Shown here piece after piece: positions 14,305-54,260 of a DNA stretch of 64,000 nt (its first letter is position 1; the number at the start of each line of letters is the position of its first letter). The notes below the pieces were generated by a model. The model was not told where the DNA came from. It worked only from the letters and a program-made list of their open reading frames with translations, and ran no database searches. Made by a program: the position numbers and the translations under genes. Location: assembly GCF_988242995.1 (NCBI RefSeq), contig NZ_OZ547043.1; one strand, 5' to 3'.

Positions 14305-14410
<106 letters not shown>

Positions 14411-20152: not shown

Positions 20153-20252
<100 letters not shown>

Positions 20253-37945: not shown

Positions 37946-40749
<2,804 letters not shown>

Positions 40750-40947
40750 CACCTACCAACGCGCCGTTATTTCCTGACGGCGCAGTAAATTCCTGCCAAA
40801 TATCGACTCACGTCACATTTTTTTGATCACGATTTGGTCCCTCAAAATGTGAGACGCTTCGATCCTCTTTTTCTCCCGTTCACCTACTATACGCTTGAAG
40901 TTGTCCATGATTGTCCATAGACAACTGTAAATGTTCAGGTGCGCGCC

Positions 40948-41694
40948 ATGAAATCATTAAGTAAGTCGTCACAAATACCGCTCTATCAACAAGTGGTGGA
41001 GTGGATAAGAGAAAGTATTTATACCGGGGATTTGGTGGAAGACGATCGCATTCCTTCGGAATACCAGATTATGGATATGCTGGAAGTGAGTCGGGGAACC
41101 GTTAAAAAAGCAGTCGCCCAACTGGTAAAAGAAGGCGTGTTGATTCAGGTCCAGGGGAAGGGAACATTTGTCAAAAAAGAGAACGTGGCATATCCGTTAG
41201 GTGAAGGATTATTGTCATTCGCGGAATCGCTGGAAAGCCAGAAAATACACTTTACCACTGAAGTTATTACGTCACGGATTGAACCGGCTAATCGTTATGT
41301 GGCAGAGAAATTAAGAATAACGCCCGGTCAGGATATTCTTTACCTTGAGCGTTTACGTTCAATTGGTGATGAAAAAGCGATGCTGATAGAGAACCGTATC
41401 AATATTGAGCTATGCCCCGGCATCGTGGAAATCGATTTTAATCAACACAATTTATTTCCAACAATAGAAAGTTTGTCGCAAAGAAAAATTCGTTACTCGG
41501 AAAGTCGCTATGCCGCGCGATTAATTGGTAATGAACGCGGTCATTTTTTAGATATCAGTGAAGATGCACCCGTTTTGCATCTGGAGCAGTTAGTCTTTTT
41601 CTCCCGAGAGTTACCCGTTGAGTTTGGCAACGTCTGGTTAAAAGGAAATAAATATTATCTGGGTACCGTGCTGCAACGGCGGGAATTGAGTTAA
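40948..41694 (+). CDS. GntR/HutC-family transcriptional regulator (HTH + UTRA effector domain)
   Basis: ATG at 40948 with upstream AGGTG (track start 40939 is GTG); N-terminal GntR HTH (IPSEYQIMDMLEVSRGTVKKAVAQLVKEGVL...GKGTFV); not part of K-12 at this position. Confidence 0.8.
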   Translation: MKSLSKSSQIPLYQQVVEWIRESIYTGDLVEDDRIPSEYQIMDMLEVSRGTVKKAVAQLVKEGVLIQVQGKGTFVKKENVAYPLGEGLLSFAESLESQKIHFTTEVITSRIEPANRYVAEKLRITPGQDILYLERLRSIGDEKAMLIENRINIELCPGIVEIDFNQHNLFPTIESLSQRKIRYSESRYAARLIGNERGHFLDISEDAPVLHLEQLVFFSRELPVEFGNVWLKGNKYYLGTVLQRRELS

Positions 41695-41718
41695 ATACAC
41701 TTTTTTATGAGGAATAAA

Positions 41719-42192
41719 ATGCAAGGCATACAGTTTCAGGAAAATTATATTCAACGACTTCCGGCAGGGTTAAGCGTTGAACAGATCATCCGTCAGTTAG
41801 CGCAACCGTTGGTTGCTGCTGAGCTGGTGGTCCCTGATTTTGCCGATCACGTACTGAAACGTGAGGCGACGTACCCAACAGGGCTGCCTACCGAACCGCC
41901 GTGCGTCGCTATTCCGCACACGGACCATAAACATGTCAGGCACAATGCAATTGCCGTCGGCATCCTGCCGGAACCGGTAGAGTTTGCCGATATGGGCGGC
42001 GATCCTGACCCCGTACCTGTCAGGGTGATTTTTTTGCTCGCCTTAAGCGAAAGTAATAAACAATTAAATGCCCTGGGCTGGATTATGGAGATGATTCAGG
42101 ATACGCCCTTTATGCGCGCCCTGCTTACGATGGAAACAACAGAAATACACACAGTAATCTTAAACAAAATGAAAGAACGAGGTGAAATATGA
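41719..42192 (+). CDS. PTS EIIA component, galactitol (GAT) family
   Basis: GatA-like motifs (YPTGLPTEP ... VAIPHTDH); start taken at ATG after GAGGA (track start 41707). Confidence 0.75.
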   Translation: MQGIQFQENYIQRLPAGLSVEQIIRQLAQPLVAAELVVPDFADHVLKREATYPTGLPTEPPCVAIPHTDHKHVRHNAIAVGILPEPVEFADMGGDPDPVPVRVIFLLALSESNKQLNALGWIMEMIQDTPFMRALLTMETTEIHTVILNKMKERGEI

Positions 42193-42470
42193 GTCAAACC
42201 ATTTTATTTGTCTGCGCCACGGGTATTGCCACATCCACGGCGGTAACAGAAAAAGTCATGGAATATTGTAAAGAGCACGGTCTTAACGTCAATTATTCCC
42301 AAACCAACGTTGCCTCTTTACCTGGAAATACTGACGGCGTAGCACTGGTAGTCTCAACGACTAAAGTGCCTTATGAACTCGACGTCCCGGTGGTTAACGG
42401 CTTGCCGATTATTACCGGTATTGGCGAAGAGAAAGTACTGGCGCAAATTGTTTCGATCCTTAAAAAGTAA
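42189..42470 (+). CDS. PTS EIIB component, galactitol (GAT) family
   Basis: 93 aa; phosphocysteine motif near the N-terminus (ILFVCATGIATST) like GatB; 4-bp overlap with EIIA. Confidence 0.78.
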   Translation: MSQTILFVCATGIATSTAVTEKVMEYCKEHGLNVNYSQTNVASLPGNTDGVALVVSTTKVPYELDVPVVNGLPIITGIGEEKVLAQIVSILKK

Positions 42471-42546
42471 TTAATAATAATTAATTTCAACCCACTCCAT
42501 CAGGCGCTAACGCGAGGTGCGCTCTCGCCTGAAAAAGAGGTTTATT

Positions 42547-43905
42547 ATGAACGATATCGCGCATACCCTCTATAATATTGTGCAATATATATTGGGATTT
42601 GGTCCCACGGTAATGTTGCCGTTGGTGTTATTTATTCTTGCTCTCTTTTTTAAAGTAAAACCCGCTAAAGCCTTACGTTCGTCATTAACGGTCGGTATTG
42701 GTTTTGTCGGTATTTATGCCATTTTCGATATTCTTACCAGCAATGTCGGGCCAGCGGCCCAGGCGATGGTTGAACGCACCGGAATTAATTTACCGGTGGT
42801 GGATTTAGGCTGGCCGCCGCTTTCCGCTATTACATGGGGTTCGCCAATTGCCCCGTTTGTTATTCCCCTGACTATTCTGATTAACGTGGCGATGCTGGCG
42901 TTAAATAAAACCCGCACCGTTGACGTAGATATGTGGAACTACTGGCATTTTGCCCTTGCCGGTACGCTGGTTTATTACAGCACCGGCAGCCTGTTCTTTG
43001 GTTTGCTGGCAGCGGCGATTGCTGCGGTGGTAGTACTTAAACTCGCCGACTGGTCTGCGCCACTGGTACAAAAATACTTTGGCCTGGAAGGGATCTCTTT
43101 GCCGACGCTCTCTTCGGTGGTGTTCTTTCCGGTCGGTCTGTTGGTCGACAAAATCATCGACCATATCCCCGGCCTCAATCGTATTCATATCGATCCGGAA
43201 ACCGTACAGAAAAAGTTTGGCATATTCGGCGAACCGATGATGGTTGGTACTATTCTGGGCATTCTGCTCGGCGTAATTGCCGGATACGATTTCAAAAAAG
43301 TCTTGCTGCTTGGCATCAGCATTGGCGGTGTGATGTTCATCCTGCCACGCATGGTTCGCATTCTGATGGAAGGTTTATTACCGCTGTCTGAAGCCATTAA
43401 AAAGTATCTCAATGCCAAATACCCTGACCGTGACGATCTCTATATCGGCCTGGATATCGCCGTTGCCGTAGGTAACCCAGCGATTATCTCCACCGCCCTG
43501 CTGCTGACGCCAATCTCGGTCTTTATCGCGTTTGTCCTTCCGGGTAATGAAGTCCTGCCGCTTGGCGACCTTGCCAACCTGGCGGTAATGGCGTCGATGA
43601 TTGCTTTAGCCAGCCGTGGCAACATTTTCCGCACCGTTCTGGCGGCGATTCCGGTGATTATTGCCGATCTGTGGATTGCGACTAAAATCGCGCCGTTTAT
43701 TACCGGAATGGCGAAAGACGTTAATTTCAAATTTGCCGAAGGCTCCAGCGGCCAGGTCTCCAGTTTCCTTGATGGCGGTAACCCGTTCCGCTTCTGGCTG
43801 CTGGAAATCTTCAACGGCAATCTCATCGCCATTGGTCTGGTGCCGGTTATTGCCCTGGTACTGTATGGTATTTTCCGAATGACGCGGAGCACGGTTTATG
43901 CCTGA
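42547..43905 (+). CDS. PTS EIIC permease, galactitol (GAT) family
   Basis: About 452 aa polytopic membrane protein; ATG at 42547 preceded by AAGAGG (track start 42517 is GTG). Confidence 0.75.
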   Translation: MNDIAHTLYNIVQYILGFGPTVMLPLVLFILALFFKVKPAKALRSSLTVGIGFVGIYAIFDILTSNVGPAAQAMVERTGINLPVVDLGWPPLSAITWGSPIAPFVIPLTILINVAMLALNKTRTVDVDMWNYWHFALAGTLVYYSTGSLFFGLLAAAIAAVVVLKLADWSAPLVQKYFGLEGISLPTLSSVVFFPVGLLVDKIIDHIPGLNRIHIDPETVQKKFGIFGEPMMVGTILGILLGVIAGYDFKKVLLLGISIGGVMFILPRMVRILMEGLLPLSEAIKKYLNAKYPDRDDLYIGLDIAVAVGNPAIISTALLLTPISVFIAFVLPGNEVLPLGDLANLAVMASMIALASRGNIFRTVLAAIPVIIADLWIATKIAPFITGMAKDVNFKFAEGSSGQVSSFLDGGNPFRFWLLEIFNGNLIAIGLVPVIALVLYGIFRMTRSTVYA

Positions 43906-45406
43906 TAACAGCGCAGCTATCGTTATCGATATTGGCACCACCAATTGCAAAGTCACCTGCTTTTCCTGCCTGGACGCAACGACGTTGGGCGCGCATAAAT
44001 TCGTGACGGCAAAACAGATCTCCCCACAGGGCAATGTCGATTTCGATATCGACGCCCTCTGGCAGGAGGTCCGCCAGGCGATAGCGCAACTGAACGCCGC
44101 TTCGCCGCTGCCAGTCAGGCGGATAAGCATTGCCAGTTTTGGCGAGTCAGGCGTGTTCCTTGACGAGCATGGCGAGATCCTGACGCCAATGCTGGCATGG
44201 TATGACCGTCGCGGTGAAGAGTATCTGGCTACACTTAGCGAGGCAGACAGTGCGGCACTTTATGACATTTGCGGGTTACCGCTGCACAGCAATTACTCTG
44301 CCTTCAAAATGCGTTGGTTGCTGGAACATTACCCACTGCGTAATCGCCGCGGCCTGCGTTGGCTACATGCGCCGGAAGTACTGCTCTGGCGGCTGACCGG
44401 CGAACAGCGCACGGATATCACCTTAGCCAGCCGCACGCTGTGTCTGGACGTGCGCAAAGGCGCATGGTCAGTGAAAGCGGCGGCGTTGTTACACGTTCCC
44501 TGTTCAGCATTTGCGCCATTGGTGCAGCCAGGCGAACACGCCGGATGGGTCAGCGAGTCGCTCTGCAAAACGCTTGGGTTCTCGCAACCGGTCAGCGTGA
44601 CGCTGGCCGGACATGACCATATGGTGGGTGCGCGAGCGTTGCAGATGATGCCGGGCGATATCCTTAACTCGACGGGGACCACAGAAGGTATTCTGCAACT
44701 GGATACACAACCGACGCTGGATGAACAGGCCAAACGTGACAAGCTGGCAAACGGCTGTTATTCGCTTGCAAACCAGTTCACCCTGTTTGCGTCGCTGCCC
44801 GTGGGCGGTTTCGCTCTGGAGTGGCTGCGTAACACGTTCCGGCTAACCGATGAGGAGATCGCCGCATCACTTACTCGCGGACATGCGGATTACCTGGCGG
44901 GGAACTGGTCGCTCGATGACATTCCCCTCTTTATTCCACATCTTCGCGGTTCGGGTTCGCCCTATAAAAATCGCCATACTCGTGGATTATTTTATGGGCT
45001 TGGCGATACGTTAAATATCGACATGTTAATTGCCAGCGTCTCACTGGGATTAACCATGGAATTTGCCAACTGCTTCGCCTGTTTTAATGTGCCTGGCACC
45101 AGCGCGTTAAAAGTGATAGGTCCGGCAACCCAAAATCCCCTTTGGCTGCAATTAAAAGCGGATATTTTACAGCGTCCGGTTGAAGCAATTGCATTTAACG
45201 AGGCGGTTTCTGTCGGAGCATTATTAACTGCCGCACCGGATATTCCACCGCCGCAAGTTACCATAGCCCAACGTTTGTTACCGAATCGGGCGAGATACCA
45301 TCAATTACAGCGTTATCAGCACAAATGGAAAAGCTGGTATCAGTTGAAATTACAGCAAGAAGGCGTGATGCCATTACACCATCGGGAGGAGCACTATGTT
45401 GAGTAA
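43898..45406 (+). CDS. FGGY-family carbohydrate kinase
   Basis: 502 aa; N-terminal actin-fold phosphate-1 motif (AIVIDIGTTNCKV) and FGGY-type glycine-rich segments; 8-bp overlap with EIIC gene. Confidence 0.7.
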   Translation: MPDNSAAIVIDIGTTNCKVTCFSCLDATTLGAHKFVTAKQISPQGNVDFDIDALWQEVRQAIAQLNAASPLPVRRISIASFGESGVFLDEHGEILTPMLAWYDRRGEEYLATLSEADSAALYDICGLPLHSNYSAFKMRWLLEHYPLRNRRGLRWLHAPEVLLWRLTGEQRTDITLASRTLCLDVRKGAWSVKAAALLHVPCSAFAPLVQPGEHAGWVSESLCKTLGFSQPVSVTLAGHDHMVGARALQMMPGDILNSTGTTEGILQLDTQPTLDEQAKRDKLANGCYSLANQFTLFASLPVGGFALEWLRNTFRLTDEEIAASLTRGHADYLAGNWSLDDIPLFIPHLRGSGSPYKNRHTRGLFYGLGDTLNIDMLIASVSLGLTMEFANCFACFNVPGTSALKVIGPATQNPLWLQLKADILQRPVEAIAFNEAVSVGALLTAAPDIPPPQVTIAQRLLPNRARYHQLQRYQHKWKSWYQLKLQQEGVMPLHHREEHYVE

Positions 45407-45665
45407 AACCGTGGAGGTCAGAAACAGTACTGGCCTGCATGCACGTCCGGCGGCGTGTCTGGTGAAAGCCGCCAAAAAGTTTAGCTGTAAAGTGACGCTG
45501 CATTATGAGGGTAATGATATTAATGCCACCAGCATGATGAATATTATGCGCGCCGGAATAAAAGGCGGCAAAACGGTGGAAATACGCTGCGAAGGCGATG
45601 ATGAAAATGAGGCAATACAAACTCTCACTGCCTTATTTCGTGACCGCTTCGGTGAAGCTGAATAA
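45396..45665 (+). CDS. HPr-family phosphocarrier protein (operon-specific paralog)
   Basis: 89 aa; active-site His context GLHARPAA identical in pattern to HPr His15; strong SD GGGAGGAG. Confidence 0.8.
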   Translation: MLSKTVEVRNSTGLHARPAACLVKAAKKFSCKVTLHYEGNDINATSMMNIMRAGIKGGKTVEIRCEGDDENEAIQTLTALFRDRFGEAE

Positions 45666-45695
45666 TTAACTGATATTAAAAGATGAGGTTTTCAA

Positions 45696-46547
45696 ATGCC
45701 ATTAGTTAATGGACGGATACTGCTCGACCGCATTCAGGAAAAACGGGTATTAGCGGGCGCGTTTAATACCACCAATCTGGAGACGACGATTTCAATTTTA
45801 AACGCCATTGAGCGTTCAGGATTACCCAACTTCATTCAGATTGCGCCCACCAATGCACAACTCTCGGGATACGATTACATTTATGAAATCGTGAAACGTC
45901 ACGCCGATAAAATGGATGTTCCGGTCAGTCTTCATCTGGATCACGGGAAAACTCAGGAGGATGTTAAACAGGCGGTGCGCGCGGGCTTTACCTCGGTCAT
46001 GATTGACGGTGCCGCATTATCTTTTGAAGAGAATATCGCTTTCACCCAGGAAGCTGTCGATTTCTGTAAATCCTATGGCGTACCGGTTGAAGCGGAGCTG
46101 GGGGCGATTCTCGGCAAAGAAGATGATCACGTCAGCGAAGCCGATTGCAAAACGGAACCGGAAAAGGTGAAGACCTTTGTCGAGCGCACCGGTTGCGACA
46201 TGCTGGCAGTTTCTATTGGCAACGTTCATGGCCTGGACGATATACCGCGTATCGATATCCCCCTGCTGAAGCGCATTGCCGAAGTCTGCCCGGTGCCGCT
46301 GGTTATTCACGGCGGCTCCGGTATCGCCCCGGAAATATTACGCAGCTTTGTTAATTATCGCGTCGCTAAAGTAAATATCGCCAGCGATCTGCGCAAAGCG
46401 TTTATCACCGCCGTCGGCAAAGCGTATGTGAATAATCACAACGAGGCGAATCTGGCACGAGTGATGGCATCAGCAAAAAACGCCGTCGAGGAAGATGTGT
46501 ATAGCAAAATCCTGATGATGAATGAGGGGCATCGGTTGGTTAAGTAA
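45696..46547 (+). CDS. class II ketose-bisphosphate aldolase (GatY/KbaY/FbaA family)
   Basis: 283 aa; metal-binding His motifs (HLDHG, VIHGGSG) typical of class II tagatose/fructose-bisphosphate aldolases. Confidence 0.8.
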   Translation: MPLVNGRILLDRIQEKRVLAGAFNTTNLETTISILNAIERSGLPNFIQIAPTNAQLSGYDYIYEIVKRHADKMDVPVSLHLDHGKTQEDVKQAVRAGFTSVMIDGAALSFEENIAFTQEAVDFCKSYGVPVEAELGAILGKEDDHVSEADCKTEPEKVKTFVERTGCDMLAVSIGNVHGLDDIPRIDIPLLKRIAEVCPVPLVIHGGSGIAPEILRSFVNYRVAKVNIASDLRKAFITAVGKAYVNNHNEANLARVMASAKNAVEEDVYSKILMMNEGHRLVK

Positions 46548-46640
46548 ATCTTCGCCGGATGCGGCGTAAAACAACTACAATTCAATAAATTGTACCGATG
46601 CGTAGACCCTATAAGCTTACGCATCGGGCAACTGTATTTA
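46548..46640. repeat. REP-like palindromic elements at island/core junction
   Basis: gccggatgcggcgtaaa and cgatgcgtagaccctataagcttacgcatcgg palindromes between the aldolase gene and yhhJ. Confidence 0.7.
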
Positions 46641-47765
46641 CGCCATTGTCCCAATCGTCTTCCTGAATCGCAGCAGTGCGATGGTGAAAAACGCGCCGCC
46701 AATTGCCATCAGCGTCAGGAACTGCGGCCAGACGATTTCGAATCCGGCACCACGGTAGAGAATGGCTTGCGCGAGGCTGACAAAGTGTGTCGTCGGCATG
46801 GTCAGCATAATGTCCTGCACCGTCTGCGGCATACTTTCGCGCGGCGTGGATCCACCGGAAAGCATTTGCAGCGGCAGCAGCACCAGAATCACCAGCAGCC
46901 CCAGTTGCGGCATTGAACGCGCTATCGTCCCCATAAAAATGCCAATTGACGTGGTGGCAAACAGACTGAGCGCCACGCCCAGCATAAATAGCGGGATCGA
47001 GCCTTCAATCGGTACGCCCAGCACGCCTTTCACCATCAGTACCAGCGATAATCCCGACACCACCAGCACCACCAACCCCATCGACCAGACCTTCGCCATC
47101 ATGATCTCAAACGGCGTTATCGGCATCACCAGTAAGTGTTCCACCGTGCCGTGTTCGCGCTCGCGGATCAGCGCCGATCCGGTCAGCACAATCGCCAGCA
47201 TGGTAATGTTGTTGATGATCGCCATCACCCCGCCAAACCACGCGGGATCGAGGTTCGGGTTAAAGCGCATCCGGGTTTCCAGCGATACCAACGGTTCGCT
47301 ATTATCACGGTAGCGCGCGACAAAGCTGTTCACTTCACCGTTGATAATATTCTGGATATAACCGTTGCCAGTGAATGCCTGGCTCATGCGCGTGGCATCG
47401 ACGTTCACCTGAATATCCGGCTGGCGTCCGGCGAGGACATCACGCTGAAAATTAGGCGGAATATTTATCGCGAAGGTATAGCGTCCGGCGTCCAGTCCGG
47501 CATCCATCTCATCGGCGGTGATCATCTCCGGTGGCAAAAACCACGGGCGATAGAAGCTGTTAACGATCCGGTTCGACAACTGCGATTGATCCATATCGGC
47601 TATGGCGATCGGCGCGAGGTTCAACGATCCTGGCGTGACGGTCGCTGACGAATACACCGATACCGTAAACGAGAAAACAATCAACGTCAGCATCGCTTTA
47701 TCACCGAGCAGACTGCGCAACTCTTTGATACCCAGATTAAAAATATTGCGTAAATGGCGCATCAT
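46638..47765 (-). CDS. yhhJ: ABC-2 type transporter permease
   Basis: Start refined to [12 protein letters not shown] (4-bp overlap with rbbA); about 375 aa membrane protein. Confidence 0.9.
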
Positions 47766-52029: not shown

Positions 52030-52745
52030 CCAGGGTTAATTTGGCAATAAATATCCTCCGGCATAGCCGGAGGTTTTTCAAATGCGCCTATAAGGCTCTC
52101 TTACCAGCCGCGCCCTAACAGGCGCACACGATCTGACATTTGCATCCAACTTCGTTACTTACGGCCCGTAAACGGGCTGCCCGGATAGGGAATCGATAAC
52201 TGCTCTCCCATTTTATCCTCTTCAAGCTGGTGCTTTATGTAATCCTGTATCTTCGCCGTGTTCTTACCCACTGTATCGACGTAGTACCCTCTGCACCAGA
52301 ACTCCCTGTTCCTGTATTTGAATTTCAAATCACCAAACTGCTCGTAAAGCATCAGACTGCTTTTCCCTTTCAGATATCCCATAAAGCCGGATACGCTCAT
52401 TTTGGGCGGGATCTCCACAAGCATATGGATATAATCTGCACAGCATTCAGCTTCCAGAATCCGTACGCTTTTCCACTCACACAGCTTTCTCAAAATACTG
52501 CCTATTGCTCTACGCTTCTCTCTGTAGAACACCTGTCTTCGGTATTTTGGCGCAAAAACTATGTGATATTTACAGTTCCATCGGGTGTGCGCTAAGCTCT
52601 TTTCGTTCCCCATTGGGACCCCCTTTTGATTTCTTGTTTGACACTTGCAGTTGCCAGACCGCAAAGTGTTTTAACAAATCAAAAGGGGTTTTAATAACTG
52701 GCTCAAAGCTGAAAGCTTTCCGGAACCCCCAGCCTAGCTGGGGGT
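52030..52745 (-). mobile_element. IS200-like insertion sequence (IS200/IS605 family, tnpA only); boundaries approximate
   Basis: About 0.7 kb element containing a Y1/HUH transposase gene, with a perfect GC-rich hairpin (aacccccagc cta gctgggggtt) at the tnpA-upstream end as in IS200 left ends; absent from the K-12 arrangement. Confidence 0.7.
52155..52613 (-). CDS. tnpA: IS200/IS605-family Y1 (HUH) transposase TnpA
   Basis: 152 aa from MGNEKSLAHTRWNCKYHIVFAPKYRR; HUH-type motif (YIHMLV) and catalytic Tyr region; start refined from ORF 52155-52664. Confidence 0.85.
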   Translation of the reverse strand: MGNEKSLAHTRWNCKYHIVFAPKYRRQVFYREKRRAIGSILRKLCEWKSVRILEAECCADYIHMLVEIPPKMSVSGFMGYLKGKSSLMLYEQFGDLKFKYRNREFWCRGYYVDTVGKNTAKIQDYIKHQLEEDKMGEQLSIPYPGSPFTGRK

Positions 52746-54260
52746 TTTCTGTGCACAATTATGCATGCTGAACATTCTTCCAGCATGTTTACTGTCACGG
52801 GCGTTAAGACCTAAAACTGTCCCCGTTTCACCTATGCGTTCTCTTCCACCATTACCGTTATGTGCAACAACTTGATTTATACCTAACATTTGTGAGCATG
52901 CTAATAGTTCTTCAAGTTTCGGTCTGTAATCTGTCGAAACAGAAAAATAACGATTAAAGGATCGACAAGAGATAGCCCGGCTAGTTTTAAACTTTTTACC
53001 ATTAATGATGGCATGATGCTTCTTATTAATAATTGCCGCTAATTCGACCGGATCGAGAGCATTGGTCATTTCATCAATAGAGACTGTTATCGGTCCTATA
53101 ATGTAACGTTTTCGCTGATCATCAAAAGTTATCCCATGATGATTTGCCATTATTTTGTATTTGGGGTCATAGAAACATACAGGATAATCTTTTATCCCAG
53201 CGTAGGTATCCTCATCAAGTGGTTTCATACGCGTGAAGTTCTGCATATAGTTACCATTGCAATTCGTTTCATGATTACCAGCTAATACATGAACATTTTT
53301 ATTAATACTCATTATGCGTTTTAACAAATCGATGATAAATTGATCGCCACAGATATTACTAAATCGATCGCCGGTTTGGTCACCCAGAAACGTACATGGC
53401 GTCACTGCGCCCTGATTAATAACTAAATATGGCTGAAGACTTTCTAAAACCACATCTCTTCTGTTCAGAATACTGATTATTGTATTAACATTAATGTCTA
53501 GTTCCTCATTAATTTTTTCCCTTAATAAAACGTTGAGAACTTCATCTTCTATATTAAGCAACTGGCTAAGAAAATTTACTTCTTCAGCCATAATTCCCAA
53601 ATGTCCCGTTGCGAAAAGCGCGTACAAAACTGCACCGACTGAGCCATCGGTATCACCAAAATAGGTTGGTCTGGTACTTGTGGGATCAACGGGTGAACAA
53701 TTGGAGAAATAGATTCTGTCAGCGAACTGGGGTTTTATAATTGTTTCGAATTTAATATCAGATACATTGTATTGCGATATTTTCCAGTTCCAGATGGGTT
53801 TGTACGACTCAGTAACTGCAACATCATTAGCATTATCATTTACTGTCATATTATTAAGTAAATAAACAATGCTGCACCAATTAATATCGGTATCATCAAG
53901 AGGGCAACCGTAATTTTTACTATTAATTGTCACAATAAACTGATAACTATTATTCCTACGTAGAATATGGGCACGCATGCCCGATAGCATACTATATTTT
54001 TCTGAATGATTCGTTTCTATGGTAAATGAAATTTTGTCATCTTGAAAAGATTGTTGGAAACGTTCTATTTGCCAATCATCAATTTTTTCCACAACTTCAC
54101 CGAGCATTGTCCTGGCAATACTTGATATATCATCACCTATACCATTTGCAATATACCCAAACAGTTCTTTAGTGAAGTTAGTAACATGCTCTTGCACCAT
54201 ATCATTTGTTGCGATAGTCGTTATACTGTCGTTAGTACCTGCCACAGTTCCAATTTTCAT
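52734..54260 (-). CDS. yhiJ: DUF4049-type protein with C-terminal PPP-like metallophosphoesterase motifs; 3' end abuts or is altered by the IS200 end
   Basis: 508 aa; motifs GDTDG, GDQTGDRF, LAGNHE in PPP order; SD GAGGT upstream; paralog of the next gene; AT-rich. Confidence 0.8.
   Translation of the reverse strand: MKIGTVAGTNDSITTIATNDMVQEHVTNFTKELFGYIANGIGDDISSIARTMLGEVVEKIDDWQIERFQQSFQDDKISFTIETNHSEKYSMLSGMRAHILRRNNSYQFIVTINSKNYGCPLDDTDINWCSIVYLLNNMTVNDNANDVAVTESYKPIWNWKISQYNVSDIKFETIIKPQFADRIYFSNCSPVDPTSTRPTYFGDTDGSVGAVLYALFATGHLGIMAEEVNFLSQLLNIEDEVLNVLLREKINEELDINVNTIISILNRRDVVLESLQPYLVINQGAVTPCTFLGDQTGDRFSNICGDQFIIDLLKRIMSINKNVHVLAGNHETNCNGNYMQNFTRMKPLDEDTYAGIKDYPVCFYDPKYKIMANHHGITFDDQRKRYIIGPITVSIDEMTNALDPVELAAIINKKHHAIINGKKFKTSRAISCRSFNRYFSVSTDYRPKLEELLACSQMLGINQVVAHNGNGGRERIGETGTVLGLNARDSKHAGRMFSMHNCAQKTPS

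Follow-up and report, generated by a model that had tools for sequence, protein, structure and literature searches.

The spacer between the aldolase gene and yhhJ

The DNA analyzed here is a stretch of 64,000 nucleotides of contig NZ_OZ547043.1 (the window), in which a strain-variable PTS cassette lies between nikR and yhhJ. The genes of the cassette are, in order, those for a GntR regulator, IIA, IIB, IIC, an FGGY kinase, HPr, and a class II aldolase (Table 1). The aldolase gene and yhhJ are convergent and are separated by a 90-base spacer. An initial annotation had placed REP-type palindromes at the junction of the cassette and yhhJ, and the ORF ends bore out this position: 46548-46637 is the whole intergenic spacer. 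An Rfam scan of the spacer and its flanks found nothing near gathering scores (best score 22.4 bits, compared to a gathering score of 80), and a consensus scan for promoters and terminators found neither in 46548-46637.

By alignment, the spacer is a single decayed BIME-1, consisting of a z-type REP, an L linker with an IHF-like site, and an inverted y-type REP. A BIME-1, as defined in PMC3333891, has z1 and y REPs, occurs in single copy, and contains an L linker that is long and conserved and often includes an IHF site. As internal references we used two canonical copies in the window, both intact and each with a z-REP, a linker of roughly 34 nt containing AAATTCAATATATTGCA, and an inverted y-REP. 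The spacer was identical to these copies at 54-55 of 76 aligned positions and was collinear with them column by column (alignment A1), indicating that the first motif and the second palindrome reported at the junction are not independent of each other and are parts of one decayed element. The 34-nt linker aligned with both canonical L linkers, and its core matched 15 of the 17 positions of AAATTCAATATATTGCA, the canonical core at 14352-14368. One unit fills the 90-bp spacer, in agreement with the single-copy, extragenic nature of BIME-1. The REP pair is represented in the window by the y-REP homologue and by a z-REP of which half is deleted; the full pair is present in orthologous loci. In strain M-17, the orthologous spacer was identical to the canonical copies at 76 of 95 positions and has a complete z-REP (GCCGGATGCGGCGTGACGCCTTATCCGGCCTAC).

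The window copy shares with other BIME-1 elements of E. coli (extragenic mosaic elements, also named RIP/RIB) the order and orientation of the parts, the L core ATTCAAnnnnTTG, GTAG beside the y-REP, its single copy, and its seat between convergent genes. It differs from them in that the right arm and CTAC tail of the z-REP are missing, the y-REP has two stem-breaking substitutions (GGCCTGAT to GACCCTAT), and the stable hairpin uses the end of the linker rather than the canonical y-REP stem.

The likeness to REPs was not due to chance. Short motifs can match without any relation to the REP family, and the shortness of the motifs was the one point in favor of this explanation. However, the first motif is an exact 14-mer match to the arm of complete REPs, and when up to two mismatches were allowed it had seven matches in the window compared to 0.88 expected, a count that was not reached in any of 100 shuffles. 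The collinearity of the whole spacer with two canonical copies and the full orthologous BIME-1 in other strains and species also argue against chance. Based on the shuffles, the alignment, and the orthologous copies, we rejected coincidence as an explanation and consider it to have virtually no probability.

Table 1. Positions of features in the 64-kb window.
Feature	Position	Strand	Basis or remark
Canonical BIME-1, internal reference	14308..14405	+	Sequence; alignment A1
Second canonical BIME-1, internal reference	20154..20251	-	Sequence; alignment A1
nikR	40348..40749	+	Pfam NikR_C, RHH_1
nikR stop codon	40747-40749	+	Left edge of the strain-variable segment; five arrangements diverge there
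PTS cassette	40939..46547	+	ORFs; Pfam GntR/UTRA, F_bP_aldolase; RefSeq annotation of matching loci (L001, L062)
Class II aldolase gene, last of the PTS cassette	45696-46547	+	ORF; Pfam F_bP_aldolase
Left (head) arm of z-type REP, GCCGGATGCGGCGT	46554-46567	+	Exact 14-mer in two complete window REPs
Deletion junction GGCGT[AAACGCCTTATCCGGCCTAC]AAAAC	46565..46571		20 nt lost, AAA microhomology; comparison with M-17, E. albertii, E. whittamii, and K-12-type sequences
L linker of BIME-1	46568..46601	+	Aligns with canonical L linkers (A1); 34 nt
IHF-like core ATTCAATAAATTG in the L linker	46580-46592		Consensus match; candidate site
Second palindrome	46595..46627		Inverted-repeat search; RNA folds of both strands
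Degenerate y-type REP GTAGACCCTATAAGCTTACGCATCGGGC	46602..46629	-	Head towards yhhJ; aligns with GTAGGCCTGATAAGCGCAGCGCATCAGGC of canonical copies
yhhJ stop codon	46638-46640	-	Right edge of the variable segment in hicAB and empty-site genomes
yhhJ (ABC-2 permease)	46638..47762	-	Pfam ABC2_membrane_3

The half z-REP and the second palindrome

The first motif is one arm of a z-type REP. The sequence gccggatgcggcgt had been described as a REP palindrome, which proved incorrect: it is the left z-REP arm alone, and the right arm is deleted. This arm, GCCGGATGCGGCGT, was an exact match to the left arm of the complete REPs at 14308-14337 and 20222-20251, and the partner arm, ACGCCTTATCCGGCCTAC, was missing at 46554, leaving a half-REP and no palindrome. 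In a z-type REP, GCCGGATGCGGCG..CGCCTTATCCGGC form an imperfect palindrome that is accompanied by a CTAC/GTAG tetranucleotide. All of these parts are found in the orthologous spacers of M-17, E. albertii, and E. whittamii, and the window has the left arm only. We conclude that the z-REP of the window is a truncated relic and not an intact member of the REP family.

The missing part corresponds to a 20-column gap relative to the canonical copies in alignment A1 and to 19 nt relative to strain M-17; with it, the z-REP lost its right arm and CTAC tail. The half-REP allele was found in 184 of 5,426 complete E. coli genomes, all within the 1,055 genomes that have the PTS cassette together with the BIME, and its carriers include strain 042 and an ST69 strain. 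Because a full BIME-1 is present between the aldolase gene and yhhJ in M-17, E. albertii, E. whittamii, and one MAG, and because the allele of the window is limited to 184 of the 1,055 genomes, the half-REP is, judged from this distribution, a derived and lineage-restricted deletion. The 20-nt deletion is flanked by AAA microhomology and would most likely have arisen by replication slippage in the lineage of the window; the half-REP that remains cannot fold.

We considered whether the half-REP might instead be the scar of an enzyme activity, either insertion of IS1397 followed by its imprecise loss or the action of TnpA-REP (RAYT). One end of the deletion is in the REP loop, the target of IS1397, and the other is right after CTAC, overlapping a TnpA-REP cleavage site (PMC3333891). 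Several strains with the half-REP allele (for example, EcPF15, AST262, JNE25-001, JNE12-007, and M7424) are also among those with 8-25 IS1397-matching places per chromosome. However, the window has no IS1397 sequence, the AAA microhomology at both ends of the deletion fits slippage, an IS is normally kept in IS-mediated adjacent deletions, and the reported TnpA-REP cleavage is between the C and T inside CTAC and not after it. We consider an enzymatic origin to be quite improbable and favor slippage.

The 181-bp junction of the window is 100% identical to that of strain 042 and at least 31 others. Over the region as a whole, no genome of the collection was closer to the window than about 98.5-99%. 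By these comparisons, the window is from a mosaic or unsampled lineage.

The second palindrome, reported as spanning 30 bp, is real. It has perfect 10-bp arms (46595-46604 and 46618-46627) and a 13-nt loop; in RNA the stem is 10 bp, or 11 with a G-U pair, and the loop is 11-13 nt. The minimum free energies of the spacer were -28.7 and -32.5 kcal/mol on the two strands (z -3.9 and -4.2), none of 200 shuffles folded as well, and the second palindrome dominated the predicted folds of both strands. On the minus strand, the hairpin begins 10 nt past the yhhJ stop codon. It is built from the end of the linker and the head arm of the degenerate y-REP, of which E. albertii and E. whittamii have a better preserved version (GTAGGCCCGATAAGCTTACGCATCGGGC). 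Despite its mutations, the y-REP still supplies this arm, and the pairing gives the stem-loop of 10-11 bp found downstream of yhhJ. The same hairpin was predicted for the M-17, K-12-type, E. albertii, and E. whittamii sequences. We dropped the idea that the shifted stem is an E. coli compensation for the lost y-REP stem, because the E. albertii and E. whittamii RNAs were predicted to form the same extended hairpin via G-U pairs.

The hairpin could act as a 3'-end stabilizer or a weak terminator. The consensus scan of 46548-46637 found no intrinsic terminator (a G+C-rich stem with a U tract), and the tails 3' of the hairpin were moderately U-rich at most. Its most plausible role would be that of a 3'-end hairpin that stabilizes or weakly terminates the convergent transcripts. 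A stronger version of this idea is that the spacer is mainly a selected bidirectional terminator or mRNA-stabilizing element and that its REP likeness is incidental. The stable hairpin was kept in M-17, K-12-type, E. albertii, and E. whittamii sequences despite the drift of the y-REP, it is located 10 nt past the yhhJ stop codon, and REPs are reported to be terminators and mRNA stabilizers (PMC3333891), all of which fit such selection. The lack of a detectable U-tract terminator in the spacer does not, and neither does the loss in the lineage of the window of the z-REP hairpin beside the aldolase gene, which has no visible replacement. In addition, about 41% of genomes (the hicAB-type and empty-site genomes described below) lack the element entirely, indicating that yhhJ does not need it. 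We regard primary selection for such a function as possible, if somewhat doubtful, and prefer to view the spacer as a decayed BIME-1.

Alternative contents of the nikR/yhhJ slot and their breakpoints

The slot between nikR and yhhJ has five alternative contents in E. coli. We searched 5,426 complete E. coli genomes with a separate diagnostic junction query for each class (at least 80% coverage); the end of yhhJ was matched in 5,413 of them. The PTS cassette together with the BIME was found in 1,055 genomes, RhsB-yhhH-ISEc1 in 2,113, and an empty site, in which 8 bp separate the stop codons of nikR and yhhJ, in 166. In 2,064 genomes hicA adjoined yhhJ. These comprise 1,491 genomes with hicAB only, in which nikR adjoins hicB, and, by difference, about 573 with the PTS cassette and hicAB. 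The classes (PTS with BIME, hicA adjoining yhhJ, RhsB, and empty) sum to 5,398 of the 5,426 genomes. The BIME was missing in the hicAB-type and empty-site genomes, about 41%. The BIME is thus no conserved flank of yhhJ and itself belongs to the variable segment.

Several details of the alternative alleles were noted. In the approximately 2,064 genomes, the HicA/HicB toxin-antitoxin pair (L004, L005) fills the slot by itself or follows the PTS cassette. Genomes with PTS and hicAB have an annotated aldolase gene that exceeds that of the window by 9 nt (3 codons). The empty alleles (L007, L008, L017) read nikR TAA, 8 bp, and TCA, such that the stop codon of yhhJ is TGA and not TAA.

The arrangement with the PTS cassette and a BIME-1 is probably ancestral in Escherichia, because it is common to E. 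albertii and E. whittamii. When a single genome of each species was scanned, E. albertii, E. whittamii, and one MAG had the aldolase gene, a full BIME-1 with a better preserved y-REP, and yhhJ. Escherichia sp. E1V33 and E. coli E69 had hicAB in the slot, and one E. coli-labelled genome of this species-representative set, in addition to the 166 in the census, had the empty site. In Citrobacter and Salmonella (L014-L061), nikR and yhhJ converged directly, and the interval between them had 0-4 REPs of a type specific to the species. Two Citrobacter genomes had other contents at this junction: an aldolase gene followed by a plain hairpin in C. amalonaticus S646, and a hicA-like gene and a REP in C. 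sedlakii.

Most of the breakpoints between these contents were outside of the REPs. We aligned the junction across genomes, as the initial annotation had proposed, and the expectation that breakpoints would coincide with the REP units held for the right breakpoint of Rhs versus PTS content, which is in the z-REP loop, and failed for the hicAB, empty-site, and nikR-side edges. On the nikR side, all five arrangements began to differ at the second stop-codon base (TAA versus TGA), and no REP was found at that boundary. In the hicAB and empty-site genomes, homology to the window started only at the yhhJ stop codon. In the genomes with PTS and hicAB, hicAB replaces 46543-46637 of the window, with breakpoints 11 nt and 8 nt outside of the REPs, indicating that the whole BIME is in the variable segment. 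The Rhs type alone breaks inside a REP; of the BIME it retains the right arm of the z-REP, the linker, and the y-REP. Thus, one of the four boundary classes maps to a REP.

The divergence between closely related alleles also changed abruptly near the spacer. We compared the window to strains 042 and Ecol_316, which have the same half-REP allele. There were 0-8 differences in the cassette (43000-46636), and divergence of approximately 2.5-3% began at 46637-46727 and extended into yhhJ-rbbA; divergence also rose leftwards into nik. These steps (42999-46727) resemble the borders of a tract of homologous recombination, and one of them is no more than approximately 100 bp from the spacer. The same two strains lack an insertion of approximately 707 bp at 52049-52755 that encodes a Y1 transposase on the minus strand (Pfam Y1_Tnp, E 5e-37), marking it as an IS200-type element.

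It had been suggested that the REP cluster is a recombination and insertion hotspot and may explain why the site alternates between Rhs and PTS content. This held in one respect: the Rhs boundary is in a REP, by way of IS1397 (see below). The broader claim, that the cluster by itself drives all of the alternation in content (Rhs, PTS, and others), is in our view unlikely. The breakpoint of the Rhs type (2,113 genomes) in the z-REP loop, the rise in divergence from strains 042 and Ecol_316 from approximately 0 to approximately 3% at 46637-46727, and the 0-4 REPs at the Citrobacter and Salmonella junctions, where REP content is unstable, are consistent with it. However, the hicAB and empty-site breakpoints are at the aldolase, nikR, and yhhJ stop codons, outside of the REPs, the left boundary at nikR has no REP, and the BIME itself is absent from the approximately 41% of genomes noted above (a second figure puts this at about 3,700 genomes). 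Even the Rhs breakpoint has its explanation in one specific insertion, that of IS1397, and not in generic REP-REP recombination. The REP cluster is thus not supported as a general explanation of the variants. A REP at the edge of a cassette should not be taken as the cause of a swap without a check of the breakpoints.

Integration hotspots that lie between core genes, with contents that are exchanged by homologous recombination in the flanks, are a general concept in pangenomes. The nikR/yhhJ slot resembles them in that one pair of convergent core genes encloses five alternative contents, the edges of which are at the stop codons, and in that flanking divergence changes abruptly at the edge. 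It differs in that there is no integrase or attachment site at nikR/yhhJ and in that the history of one allele is traceable to a REP-targeting IS. We infer that hicAB in place of the BIME, hicAB only, and the empty site would be old alternative alleles of this hotspot that were swapped by homologous recombination in the flanking core genes.

The Rhs-type boundary and IS1397

The boundary between Rhs and PTS content is, on the evidence of its junction sequences, the scar of an IS1397 insertion in the BIME that was later truncated by ISEc1. The last base of ISEc1 (H-rpt) in the K-12-type locus is L002:11923; the element is 1,291 bp long, and its inverted repeats are CAGGGAAAGATCA and CAGGGCAAGATTA. 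The 64 bp that follow it (L002:11924-11987) were identical at 62 of 64 positions to the right end of the intact IS1397 in PD23, and they have the IS1397 terminal inverted repeat with its CA end. They also matched IS1397 copies in other genomes, with annotated IS1397 transposase genes under the matches. The 64 bp are followed by TAA and then by the right REP arm, and the IS1397 end (...GGGGGTCAGTTCA) leads directly into that arm (TAAACGCCTTATCCGGCCTA).

The position of this remnant was that expected of an IS1397 insertion. According to PMC1525189, IS1397 inserts specifically into REPs. In PD23, the intact 1,432-bp copy interrupts the z-REP loop of a different BIME-1 and is accompanied by a GTGA duplication, and its geometry (GGCGTGA, the IS, then GTGAACGCC) is the same as that of the K-12-type junction (...GTCAGTTCA followed by TAAACGCCTTATCCGGCCTA). 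The IS1397 copies listed among the genome matches were followed by BIME-1-like sequence for about 86 nt. The diagnostic IS1397/REP junction was covered in all 2,113 Rhs-type genomes, and the point at which the IS1397 end meets the REP loop is the same as that of the deletion junction in the window. To the right of the scar, the linker and y-REP of the Rhs type were identical to those of the window at 59 of 62 positions and are orthologous to them, indicating that IS1397 was inserted in place. The Rhs-type site thus shares with known IS1397 elements (IS3 family), which have as their specific target the loop of REPs in BIMEs, a right end that abuts the z-REP loop and right arm, as in PD23, and differs in that the last 64 bp alone survive, truncated by ISEc1 (H-rpt).

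Other sequences related to this insertion were not found. None of the 5,426 genomes had an intact IS1397 in the yhhJ-side BIME (searched with a chimeric 500-nt query), there was no IS1397 end or sequence within the 64-kb window, and there were no remnants of the PTS cassette in the Rhs segment. ISEc1 itself was considered as the REP-targeting element and rejected, because 64 bp lie between the end of its right inverted repeat and the REP remnant and because it is not flanked by a direct repeat.

We infer the intermediate steps as follows. In an ancestor of the Rhs type, IS1397 would have inserted into the z-REP loop. RhsB-yhhH-ISEc1 would then have replaced the left REP arm, everything leftward, and IS1397 itself except for the last 64 bp. 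Judging from the outgroups only, the leftward content that was replaced was most likely the PTS cassette. The nikR-yhhJ position is Rhs locus 9, one of 11 conserved rhs positions (PMC2935791, Table 3). The cassette of the window is in the same chromosomal slot as the RhsB and H-rpt (ISEc1) of that locus, but the window has the PTS cassette in place of RhsB.

Based on these results, we believe that the best explanation of the whole, with a probability of about 0.8, is that the spacer is a decayed BIME-1 that suffered a slippage deletion in the lineage of the window, that the Rhs type bears the scar of IS1397, and that the other alleles were swapped by flanking recombination. A more far-reaching possibility is that a REP-targeting IS seeds the turnover of cargo: the BIME-1 would have recruited IS1397, which would have provided the homology or target for RhsB/ISEc1 to displace the ancestral PTS cassette in approximately 39% of E. 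coli, and the half-REP would be a variant in which the target is destroyed. We hold this to be rather unlikely. If true, the half-REP would make the site refractory to further IS1397 insertion in a lineage that includes IS1397-rich strains.

The element, the IS that targets REPs, and the Rhs locus each belong to a known kind (PMC3333891, PMC1525189, and PMC2935791), and the spacer, as an ordinary BIME-1 relic, has little significance beyond bookkeeping. One by-product of the analysis is the census of the five alternative contents at the nikR/yhhJ hotspot. Another is that the 64-bp IS1397 remnant and half-REP mark the right end of RhsB in K-12-type genomes; the remnant is the one detail that is apparently unannotated. 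The K-12 RefSeq record (NC_000913.3) has no REP or mobile-element feature annotated between yhhI and yhhJ, and the remnant and half z-REP between ISEc1 (yhhI) and yhhJ correspond to the MG1655 intergenic region L009:8516-8679.
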